Source: Candidatus Methylomirabilales bacterium (lineage in GTDB: Bacteria > Methylomirabilota > Methylomirabilia > Methylomirabilales > CSP1-5). Taken from it: a stretch of DNA of 64,000 bases. The number at the start of each line of letters is the position of its first letter. Position 1 is the first letter of the stretch. The translations under genes were made by a program, and so were the position numbers. Positions 30,327 to 31,097 of the stretch are shown one piece after another. The DNA lies in contig JBFHXD010000001.1 of assembly GCA_041599135.1 (NCBI GenBank), forward strand, positions 7,473 through 71,472, in the 5' to 3' direction. Under the pieces are notes generated by a model. The model had not been told where the DNA came from, searched no databases, and saw nothing but the letters and a program-made list of their open reading frames with translations.

Positions 30327-30415
30327 CGTTAACCGACGTCCGATGACCGTTCACCGACGACCGATTACAGAAAGGAAAGCCGGCCGACCTTACGGTCGTC
30401 GGTCATCGGTCAACG
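30327..30415. repeat. Heptamer palindromic array (family B) in the glnB-glnA spacer
   Basis: CGTTAAC CGACGTC CGATGAC CGTTCAC CGACGAC CGATTAC (30327-30368), then an inverted GTCGTCG GTCATCG GTCAACG (30395-30415). There is 11/11-bp pairing between 30353-30363 and 30393-30403. Confidence 0.8.
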
Positions 30416-30425
30416 GTGCACAAAA

Positions 30426-30764
30426 CTAGATGGCTTCTTCGCCCCGCTCTCCCGTCCGGATTCGCACAGCGTCATCACACGGGATGACGAATATTTTTCC
30501 GTCGCCGATCCGCCCCGTCTTTGCTGCAGCCTGGATGGTGTCCACAACCTGATCAGACTTGCCATCCGCAACCACTACCTCAACTTTGACTTTGGGAAGA
30601 AAATCGATGGTATACTCCGCTCCCCGGTACAGCTCGGTGTGCCCCTTCTGTCGCCCGAACCCTTTCACTTCACTGATTGTCAGTCCCTGGATGCCGATCT
30701 CCGCCAGGGCATTTTTCACCTCGTCCAGCTTGAATGGCTTAATGATCGCTTCGATCTTTTTCAT
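30426..30764 (-). CDS. glnB: Nitrogen regulatory protein P-II
   Basis: In-frame ATG 30764 ([17 protein letters not shown]). T-loop [11 protein letters not shown] with the uridylylation Tyr. 112 aa. Confidence 0.97.
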
Positions 30765-30853
30765 CGTCCACTCCCCGATCTTCCGAAAGGTGTCTCCCCG
30801 CCCAAAAGCTGGAGGACTCTCTCCGCGCACGGCCTCACCGGCAGGCCGGGGGA

Positions 30854-30868
30854 GCAAGCCCTATGCCA
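30854..30868 (-). promoter_or_regulatory. Sigma-54 promoter upstream of glnB(-glnA)
   Basis: Minus strand reads TTGGCATAGGGCTTGCT (TGGCAT-N5-TTGC), about 90 nt upstream of the glnB ATG. Confidence 0.65.
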
Positions 30869-31043
30869 AGCCCTTTTTCGCATCTGAGAACCTGTAAATC
30901 CCTGGAAATTTAATGGGAACCTAGAAACCAGCACATCTGTCTTTCCCTTCTCACCCCCTTCTTTCATGCCCACGGATTAGGCAGATCTCTTGTCCTTGCC
31001 CGTTTGATCGGCAGGATCCCAGTAAAGCTGTCAGCGGTCGATT

Positions 31044-31097
31044 CGATGACCGATCACCGCTAACCGATGACCGTCTCTAGTCGGTCGTCGATCAACG
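31044..31097. repeat. Heptamer palindromic array (family B)
   Basis: CGATGAC CGATCAC CGCTAAC CGATGAC (31044-31071), then an inverted GTCGTCG ATCAACG (31084-31097) that overlaps the stop codon of the galT-like gene. Confidence 0.75.

Follow-up and report, generated by a model that had tools for sequence, protein, structure and literature searches.

Why should the same seven-letter word be repeated head to tail on both sides of glnB, and again directly ahead of an unrelated start codon, within one short piece of a bacterial genome? The question was raised by a reading of the sequence alone (below, the sequence-only reading) of 64,000 nt of the Candidatus Methylomirabilales contig JBFHXD010000001.1 (assembly GCA_041599135.1); we call this whole stretch the window and use window positions as coordinates throughout. 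The sequence-only reading described tandem heptamers of the form CGNNNAC in inverted arrays at three loci, and compared them with the short tandemly repeated repetitive (STRR) sequences of cyanobacteria and with the repetitive extragenic palindromic (REP) sequences that make up bacterial interspersed mosaic elements (BIME). With moderate confidence, we favour the view that the arrays are dispersed, fast-evolving, non-coding mosaic repeats of a sub-clade of NC10/Methylomirabilales, STRR-like or BIME-like in kind, and that they form transcribed palindromes at the ends of cistrons.

Tandem heptamers at three loci of the window

When the window was re-read, all strings quoted in the sequence-only reading were found in their places, and its gene names (P-II, GlnA, GalT-like protein, amidohydrolase) were borne out by Pfam. 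All the genes concerned are encoded on the minus strand, so the arm that it called 'forward', correct in sequence, is the 3' arm of the RNA and was misjudged in orientation. Locus 1 is a hairpin of roughly 100 nt that fills the spacer between glnB (P-II; 30426-30764, minus strand) and glnA (type I glutamine synthetase; 28892-30304, minus strand). Its 5' arm on the mRNA (30393-30417, minus strand) starts 8 nt past the glnB stop codon TAG and reads ACCGTTG ACCGATG ACCGACG ACCG. After a centre of ~22 nt that is unpaired or weakly paired in RNA folds (30371-30392, minus strand), the 3' arm (30320-30370, minus strand) follows with CGGTCGT CGGTGAA CGGTCAT CGGACGT CGGTTAA CGGTAAG. This arm contains the six heptamers reported at 30327-30368, and their arrangement as two 21-nt super-units was recovered by Tandem Repeats Finder (2.0 copies, 90%). 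The arms are 88% complementary over 24 nt, and the inverted words and the 11/11 pairing of 30353-30363 with 30393-30403 proved exact. The 3' arm ends 17 nt ahead of the glnA ATG, where a G-run Shine-Dalgarno sequence stays unpaired.

Locus 2 begins within the GalT-like gene (31092-32102, minus strand), whose last codons and stop are made of array units. Its 5' arm (31078-31099, minus strand) reads ACCGTTG ATCGACG ACCGAC, with the galT-like stop codon TGA (31094-31092) inside the first unit, as part of the word GTTGATC, and its 3' arm (31040-31073, minus strand) reads CGGTCAT CGGTTAG CGGTGAT CGGTCAT CG; both the array (31044-31073) and the inverted copy over the stop codon are as they had been described. 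Locus 3 is a single array (41569-41604, minus strand; CAGTCGAGCC GTCATCG GTAAACG GTCATCG GTC, then ATG) in a 65-nt spacer with co-directional genes on both sides. It abuts the start codon (41570-41568) of a D-aminoacylase-type Amidohydro_3 protein gene (39966-41570, minus strand), and the conserved N-terminus of this protein, MFDL, begins at that ATG. Neither an inverted partner nor a Shine-Dalgarno sequence was seen at the array or the start codon. The description of an array running straight into a start codon, where a ribosome-binding site would be expected, therefore stands (the word array at 41569-41596 ends CGGTC, then ATG), whereas the inverted arrangement applies to loci 1 and 2 and not to locus 3.

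Tandem Repeats Finder called period 7 at all three loci, in agreement with a lag-7 self-match scan. The arrays comprise 3-7 heterogeneous units around a fixed ACCG core. As for the unit CGNNNAC proposed by the sequence-only reading, the core is right and the freedom of the three middle positions is not: the triplets ATG, ACG and TTG account for 50 of the 79 units. The resulting consensus is GAYGACC with an almost invariant ACCG core, an invariance that is partly an ascertainment effect because the arrays were defined by that core. The arms are tandem 7-mers and not self-complementary, and a hairpin requires two opposed arrays.

The arrays exceed chance by a wide margin. Against dinucleotide-preserving shuffles of the window, (CGNNNAC)x3 was observed 6 times (0.01 expected), (CGNNNAC)x2 13 times (2.5 expected) and ACCGN3ACCGN3ACCG, with at most one mismatch, 12 times (0.6 expected), in each case exclusively within the three loci. 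A period census by lag-match scan over the window and its relatives (198 kb of NC10 loci) yielded 17 intergenic versus 4 coding arrays of period 7 and 9 versus 1 of period 8. Other periods gave no intergenic array, and in coding DNA only multiples of three plus one period-5 array. Gene calls behind this census, in the relatives and metagenome loci, come from a crude filter for open reading frames (ORF) based on GC at third codon positions (GC3), and the counts are approximate to that extent. In 9 of the 11 cases read, the upstream stop codon lies inside the array or no more than 9 nt from its beginning. The arrays are almost exclusively intergenic and are enriched only at periods 7 and 8.

Operon setting and predicted folding of the transcripts

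The sequence-only reading placed all copies inside operons. Locus 1 is clearly intra-operonic, and it is the only locus of which this can be said. A sigma-54 type promoter for glnB-glnA, TGGCAT-N5-TTGCT (30853-30868, minus strand), lies ~90 nt upstream of glnB and is conserved in all relatives; the pattern has three matches in the window against 0.04 expected, the other two at 3892-3907 (plus strand) and 18453-18468 (minus strand). Another ~100 nt upstream of this box, the palindrome TGCCTAATCCGTGGGCA (TGCC-N9-GGCA; 30967-30983, minus strand) is conserved in all NC10 relatives, and box and palindrome are both kept while the surrounding DNA varies. From these signals, glnB-glnA looks like an NtrC-type activated operon; within the glnB-glnA spacer, nothing promoter-like was seen ahead of glnA. 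Locus 2 lies at the 3' end of the gene string that runs from the hydantoinase genes to galT, ~170 nt upstream of the glnB sigma-54 promoter. Because this conserved promoter lies downstream of locus 2, the locus is outside the glnB transcription unit and belongs to the end of the preceding operon.

This setting bears on the idea of a nitrogen-regulatory cis-element specific to glnB/glnA, such as a set of sites for an NtrC-type activator. Of the three loci, two lie beside glnB; the window holds further nitrogen-control genes (ntrBC-like, glnE) besides the sigma-54 promoter; and in an unrelated metagenome-assembled genome (MAG; L129, described below) glnB likewise has a heptamer array on its upstream side. 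The truly conserved upstream parts, however, are the sigma-54 box and the TGCC-N9-GGCA palindrome, which lie outside the arrays, and the arrays themselves vary or vanish between relatives. Moreover, GAYGACC arrays also occur in a lysA-dapA spacer, ahead of the amidohydrolase gene, after glnE and before a short-chain dehydrogenase gene. A nitrogen-specific element is thereby largely refuted, and we regard it as very improbable.

Folded as RNA, the transcribed strand of locus 1 reached -56.5 kcal/mol (z = -4.4) and that of locus 2 -33.5 kcal/mol (z = -3.8), whereas the fold of locus 3 was not significant (z = -0.6; 200 shuffles each), so that the folding check proposed by the sequence-only reading succeeds at two of its loci and fails at the third. 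The fold of the transcribed strand gains 11.0 kcal/mol over that of the complementary strand at locus 1 and 6.2 kcal/mol at locus 2, because the mismatches are G-U pairs on the transcribed strand. Across word-array spacers of known direction, the transcribed strand was the more stable one in 13/18 (mean difference -2.2 kcal/mol), a modest asymmetry among spacers that are partly homologous and not independent. This strand asymmetry suggests relevance at the RNA level.

The elements, if they act at all, probably do so as RNA stem-loops at cistron ends. An element consists of a tandem GAYGACC block, most often with a reverse-complement array of these words behind it, with the ACCG arm on or within ~10 nt of the upstream stop codon and the CGGT arm ending beside the downstream ribosome-binding site or start codon. 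It would be transcribed with the flanking genes and fold in the message; because the shared GC-rich 4-nt core lets opposed arrays pair in several registers, such a hairpin would tolerate units being gained, lost or exchanged. The stem-loop of locus 2 may mark or protect the 3' end of the upstream operon as a barrier to 3' exonucleases. At locus 1, a stem of ~35 bp could be either a decay barrier or a site for a double-strand RNase, uncoupling the stabilities of glnB and glnA, and its folding-out would keep the glnB stop codon and the glnA ribosome-binding site close to each other. Effects of this sort are known for REP/BIME and have been proposed for STRR sequences, which makes them the likeliest consequences here.

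Strong hairpins directly after stop codons could also be transcription terminators or attenuators; locus 2 would then terminate the galT operon, and locus 1 would reduce read-through from glnB to glnA. Clade-specific stem-loops are known to mark transcript 3' ends regardless of terminator type, in Rho-independent and Rho-dependent termination alike (PMC13613805), and a family of similar architecture on Pyrinomonadaceae contigs has A- and T-tracts and flanking genes that are convergent in 12 cases, co-directional in 24 and divergent in 3 (among the matches listed). Yet no T-run follows the hairpins of loci 1 and 2, nor those of the compared loci L308, L273 and L324, and an intrinsic-terminator scan returned no site at loci 1 or 2. 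The same scan recovered the textbook terminator that the organism uses after glnA (28843-28868, minus strand; an 11-bp GC stem, then a T-run), which is conserved in the relatives L324, L327, L332 and L333. Since the heptamer hairpins lack a U-tract and a canonical terminator stands close by, we rejected the intrinsic terminator as an explanation. With locus 1 lying within a two-gene unit that has no promoter-like site ahead of its second gene, terminators or attenuators of any kind seem improbable to us. A known RNA family was rejected as well: the best Rfam scores at the loci were 22.6, 22.1 and 12.8 bits against cut-offs of 45, 60 and 36, and no family matched at its gathering score.

Turnover of the arrays among relatives

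Syntenic galT-glnB-glnA loci were compared at GlnA identities of 95% (L332), 94% (L324-326), 93% (L333), 92% (L334), 91% (L327-330), 90% (L335), 82% (L336) and 80% (L331). Sources of the GlnA homologues that are 90-96% identical name candidate division NC10 or Candidatus Methylomirabilales bacterium, as do those of the amidohydrolase homologues, and the GlnA of a Candidatus Methylomirabilis sp. is ~80% identical. An exact-protein look-up gave no match for GlnA and found GlnB in only two near-identical 3-kb contigs, of no use for the comparison. On the identities of the GlnA and amidohydrolase homologues, the window's host is an uncultured NC10/Methylomirabilota bacterium outside the genus Methylomirabilis. 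The strain is present in the samples SRR29257409 and SRR29257436.

The glnB-glnA spacer differs strikingly along this series. ACCG-family arrays in both orientations are found in the window, L332 and L324, with different unit numbers and orders. In L333, the spacer carries GGTTGAC/AGTTCAC units, then (ATTTCGA)4, then the remnant CGGTTAACGGTCATCGAG; in L334 and L327 it reads (GGTTCAN)n ... (CCATGAA)n, and in L335 there are two ATTTCGA units. The spacers of L336 and L331 are without word arrays and contain GC-rich hairpins only. Among the closest relatives, nothing is conserved except the last CGGTCATCGA and the G-run ahead of glnA. The stretch after the galT stop codon is equally variable in its proximal part, and its distal part is conserved, with a GCTGAC-rich block, the palindrome and the sigma-54 box described above. 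At locus 3 the position is kept and the unit number varies: L337 (96% identical) has GGTCATCGGTCATG, L338 (84% identical) has GGTCATCGGTCGTCGGTAAACGGTCATCGGTTATG with other word arrays ahead of it, and the units nearest the amidohydrolase start, GGTCATCGGTYATG, are conserved. Overall, the spacers of syntenic relatives are hypervariable, through gain and loss of units, replacement of one word family by another, or lack of any array. With units turning over in this way, the hairpins align ambiguously, and compensatory changes are hard to read from them because the common core lets any two opposed arrays pair in any case.

The arrays also reach into the genes. In the orientation GATGACC/GTTGACC they carry TGA in two or three reading frames, so that an array can take over the role of a stop codon at little cost to the gene. 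Array-derived stop codons indeed end galT (...ACCGTTGA in the window and in L324, ...CGATGA in L333) and glnE (...CGATGA in L335). At the other end, upstream ATGs inside arrays have misled gene callers, with GlnA called at 489 aa in L334 (10001-10057) and the amidohydrolase at 540 aa in L338 (10001-10039). In annotation, arrays that overlap or create stop and start codons are thus a practical source of error.

Unit numbers that vary between strains could be thought to indicate phase-variable contingency repeats, which switch genes by unit number. Phase-variable repeats are perfect and lie in a reading frame or a promoter spacer; the units here are imperfect and heterogeneous, which suppresses slippage, and the arrays lie after stops or before starts, neither in reading frames nor between promoter hexamers. 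Their neighbours, in addition, are housekeeping genes, and we attach hardly any probability to phase variation.

Replacement of words at the same site also bears on the possibility that the arrays are a periodic platform for an oligomeric protein, in which successive subunits would each contact one ACCG (or CGGU) core, 7 nt apart, on single-stranded DNA or RNA. Such periodic binding is known from HutP, which recognises UAG-N4 repeats, and from TRAP, which recognises GAG/UAG repeats. A near-invariant 4-nt core with a variable 3-nt spacer would suit it, and so would single arrays directly ahead of start codons without a Shine-Dalgarno sequence, which parallel the TAACTGA arrays of Beggiatoaceae, for which binding of S1/Csp/CsrA-type proteins was proposed (PMC4679880). 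However, the invariance of the core is partly due to the way in which arrays were defined, half of the arrays are locked in hairpins, and the platform is without a candidate protein. ACCG words are, besides, swapped at the same sites for GGTTCAN, ATTTCGA or GCTAGNN, and because these replacements are unrelated, a different protein would be needed for each. We give this explanation little credence.

Beyond what the sequence-only reading had described, the comparison brings out fast turnover, same-site replacement by unrelated words, and a system of at least five word families of 7-8 nt: A, GAYGACC; B, AATTCGA; C, CTGAACY / GGTTCAN; D, GCTAGNNN; and E, GGCTGAY. The families are arranged as X+ X- pairs (A+A-, D+D-, E-E+, C-C+) and as nested palindromes. 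One sister element in the window (27915-28063, minus strand), found by repeat scans, has inverted arrays of GCTAGNNN octamers (GCGTCCCA) nested beside GGCTGAT heptamers. The HAD-TPR spacer in which it lies (27892-28066) has the order E- D+ .. D- E+ in the window and L327 and E- .. E+ alone in L332, and is empty (17 nt) in L324 and L333. No target-site duplication was evident between the filled (window, L332, L327) and the empty (L324, L333) versions, the flanks of which have diverged. Two further sister elements are inverted AGGCTAGN octamer arrays at 25749-25877 (plus strand; 36-nt arms, 78% complementary) and a GCTAG-word hairpin at 8037-8090 (minus strand) in a 59-nt spacer (8033-8091). The genes flanking the latter spacer encode an ntrB-like PAS histidine kinase and an ntrC-like sigma-54 activator (6572-9246, minus strand).

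Several blocks are shared between unrelated loci. An array identical to the 25-mer ACCGTTGACCGATGACCGACGACCG in the arm of locus 1 stands after galT in L324, and the 18-nt head of this 25-mer recurs in L273; the exact 25-mer had no match in viral contigs. The 19-mer CAGTCGAGCCGTCATCGGT, the junction of locus 3, is found at 13700-13718 of L335 ahead of an unrelated gene. A composite [GAYGACC]n-[AATTCGA]n-[CTGAACY]n occurs three times in L335 (13745-13840, 18365-18475 and 9922-10000) and once in L333 (9908-9995, the glnB-glnA spacer), in both orientations, with junctions kept and a mean column identity of 66%. This A-B-C composite is the clearest evidence, among the sequences compared, pointing to the copying of whole elements between loci. 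With the very same word blocks and junctions present at loci that are otherwise unrelated, local slippage alone does not account for the arrays. We propose that elements spread by copying and then change by slippage of units, and that they would survive chiefly at sites where, once folded out, they do no harm or are of slight use.

The main rival to this proposal is that the arrays are functionless selfish or neutral DNA, produced by a slippage that favours units of 7-8 nt together with occasional copying, tolerated at certain sites only, and with hairpins as a by-product. Several observations weigh against our preferred interpretation, and some of them speak for this rival. Hairpin strength is not conserved: the z-scores of the nine glnB-glnA spacers are -4.4, -2.6, -1.9, -0.7, -3.4, -0.4, 0.0, 0.0 and -1.1, and because they vary so, a strong hairpin is frequent and not obligatory. 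Single-armed arrays exist, namely locus 3 and several in relatives. Some close relatives lack the element at the same site, and any function must therefore be dispensable or replaceable. To these points are added the modest strand asymmetry and the approximate gene calls mentioned above, as well as the fact that no transposase or comparable agent of spread was found; a scan of 20 proteins of the window showed no REP-associated tyrosine transposase (RAYT; Y1 transposase). Fast turnover and replacement by unrelated words are likewise what neutral DNA would show, and heptanucleotide repeats are, in the accounts of PMC4679880 and PMC4692102, the most abundant long simple repeats in many bacteria and ascribed to polymerase slippage. 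On the other hand, some array or hairpin persists at the glnB-glnA spacer through several replacements, palindromic symmetry is retained even in nested multi-family elements, the transcribed strand tends toward better folding, and the start-proximal units (CGGTCATCGA for glnA, GGTCATCGGTYATG for the amidohydrolase) are conserved. We rate wholly neutral DNA, to which the variable fold strength and the empty sites lend support, as possible and rather unlikely.

The surroundings of the arrays in the window are rich in nitrogen and amino-acid metabolism. They include the GlnE adenylyltransferase gene (21332-24451, minus strand) and, upstream of galT-glnB-glnA, a conserved cluster (33059-37940, minus strand) encoding hydantoinase/oxoprolinase A and B, a D-glutamate cyclase and a GLUCM-like protein. 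The sole Rfam match at gathering score in the window is the bacterial class A RNase P RNA (12015-12454, minus strand; 305.7 bits). Outside the word-array families, an inverted repeat at 13842-13962 spans a gene end, with 28-nt arms, 82% complementary, lying 65 nt apart.

Occurrence elsewhere and comparison with known repeats

We scanned soil metagenomes with the pattern ACCGN3ACCGN3ACCG-N(3-33)-CGGTN3CGGTN3CGGT, which covers the order with the ACCG arm first. Inverted ACCG-heptamer hairpins are abundant there, with at least 120 stretches. Family A of the window is found in L308, in the order lysA-[hairpin]-dapA-dapB, in L273, as two hairpins past a gene end, and also in L316 and L317 (among the matches listed). 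The dominant metagenome family is another one, CCGTGAACCGTAAACCGTGAC...GTCACGGTTTACGGTTCACGG, with an A-tract on its 5' side and a T-tract on its 3' side (L206, L208, L209, L217 and ~50 others, among the matches listed). From these tracts and from their flanking genes, counted above, the CCGTGAACCGTAAACCGTGAC..GTCACGGTTTACGGTTCACGG hairpins look like bidirectional terminators built from heptamers. A protein from L206, the one contig tested, has sources that name Pyrinomonadaceae (Acidobacteriota), and tandem-heptamer hairpins are therefore not peculiar to NC10. In the genome-contig loci found with GlnA (at most 76% identity, among the matches listed; 1.29 Mb), ACCG heptamers occurred only in L129, a Proteobacteria MAG of 73% GC. 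In this MAG, the arrays (5579-5800) occupy the divergent region ahead of glnB: a run of 17 GGTGGTC/AGTAGTC-type heptamers extends up to a start codon, and seven ACTGACC units in inverted orientation follow at a distance of ~40 nt. The simpler pattern (ACCGNNN)x4ACCG was rejected as a family marker, as at least 120 viral contigs matched it with unrelated perfect heptamer microsatellites of every sequence.

The tandem-heptamer hairpin architecture is thus much wider spread than the literature we found suggests. A bolder and, in our judgement, doubtful reading would be that hairpins of tandem 7-8-nt words are a general, actively generated and so far overlooked class of bacterial element, in which a dedicated process writes words symmetrically into both arms; hairpin-templated synthesis (by snap-back or template switch) or a transposase could be such a process. 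If so, the resulting stems would be 'zippers' that tolerate shifts of register, change one whole unit at a time and can exchange one word family for another while the fold is kept. They would serve as modular cistron-end structures: bidirectional terminators in Pyrinomonadaceae, intercistronic insulators or couplers and donors of stop codons in NC10. The 35-year-old puzzle of the STRR sequences would then become testable through strain series.

Our literature searches turned up no paper on repeats in NC10 or on hairpins built from heptamers as a class of their own, and several known systems invite comparison. A REP sequence consists of one imperfect palindrome, ~35 nt long, whose head is conserved, and is mobilised by RAYT transposases; REP sequences and BIMEs protect transcripts from 3' exonucleases, bring about differential expression within operons and affect translation near stop codons. 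The resemblance to REP/BIME noted in the sequence-only reading is one of architecture: the elements are dispersed, extragenic, placed at gene 3' ends or between co-directional genes, able to form stem-loops in transcripts, and built as a mosaic of a few motif types in alternating orientation. Membership does not follow from this, since the units are not palindromes; the arms here are tandem word arrays and not ~35-nt palindromes with a conserved head.

The TAACTGA repeats of marine Beggiatoaceae occur in 2-6 copies in intergenic DNA, mostly a few nucleotides before start codons without a canonical ribosome-binding site (MacGregor 2015, PMC4679880). Locus 3 and its counterparts in relatives are similarly placed ahead of starts. 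Those repeats are, however, nearly all direct (one indirect in 170) and made of a single exact word, whereas inverted pairing is common here and several words coexist. In Xanthomonas and Nostoc, GGGAATC/GGGGAYT heptamers are intergenic, vary in length and sequence among close relatives at the same gene pairs and form some inverted pairs (Rehm 2015, PMC4692102); they differ in being G-rich and quadruplex-forming, which ACCG words are not. Long simple repeats of 7-nt units were found over-represented in the intergenic DNA of scattered lineages, with slippage as the proposed cause (Mrazek 2007, as reported in PMC4679880 and PMC4692102). The sharing of identical multi-word blocks and junctions between unrelated loci, and the nesting of the palindromes, go beyond what slippage alone can explain.

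The closest comparison is with STRR sequences, heptanucleotide repeats known since 1990. These cyanobacterial tandem repeats have a 7-bp unit and fold into hairpins between the cistrons of operons, hupS-hupL for example; of unknown function, they have been proposed to act in transcript stability or translational coupling (PMC2670836). The analogy drawn in the sequence-only reading holds on this description, and it extends to several unit families per genome and to an intergenic or intra-operon location (PMC2670836, PMC4692102). Like STRR, the repeats described here occur as dispersed non-coding copies, at three loci in 64 kb, in every close relative and in 4-5 metagenome contigs. They differ in that the host belongs to NC10 and the unit is GAYGACC, whereas STRR are sequences of heterocystous cyanobacteria with described words of their own; because host and words differ, they are not STRR in the strict sense. 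The units are also heterogeneous around the ACCG core, and the arrays are short (3-7 units), regularly paired and nested. The STRR2 word, TTGGTCA, is one base off GGTCATC in another register. Within a single system, the graded syntenic series (GlnA identity 95-80%) displays unit gain and loss, word-family replacement, nesting and empty sites, and offers material for separating slippage, copying and selection for folding. By analogy, the arrays around glnB are the same kind of thing as the STRR-type heptamer repeats, and they add a new phylum to the heptanucleotide intergenic repeats.

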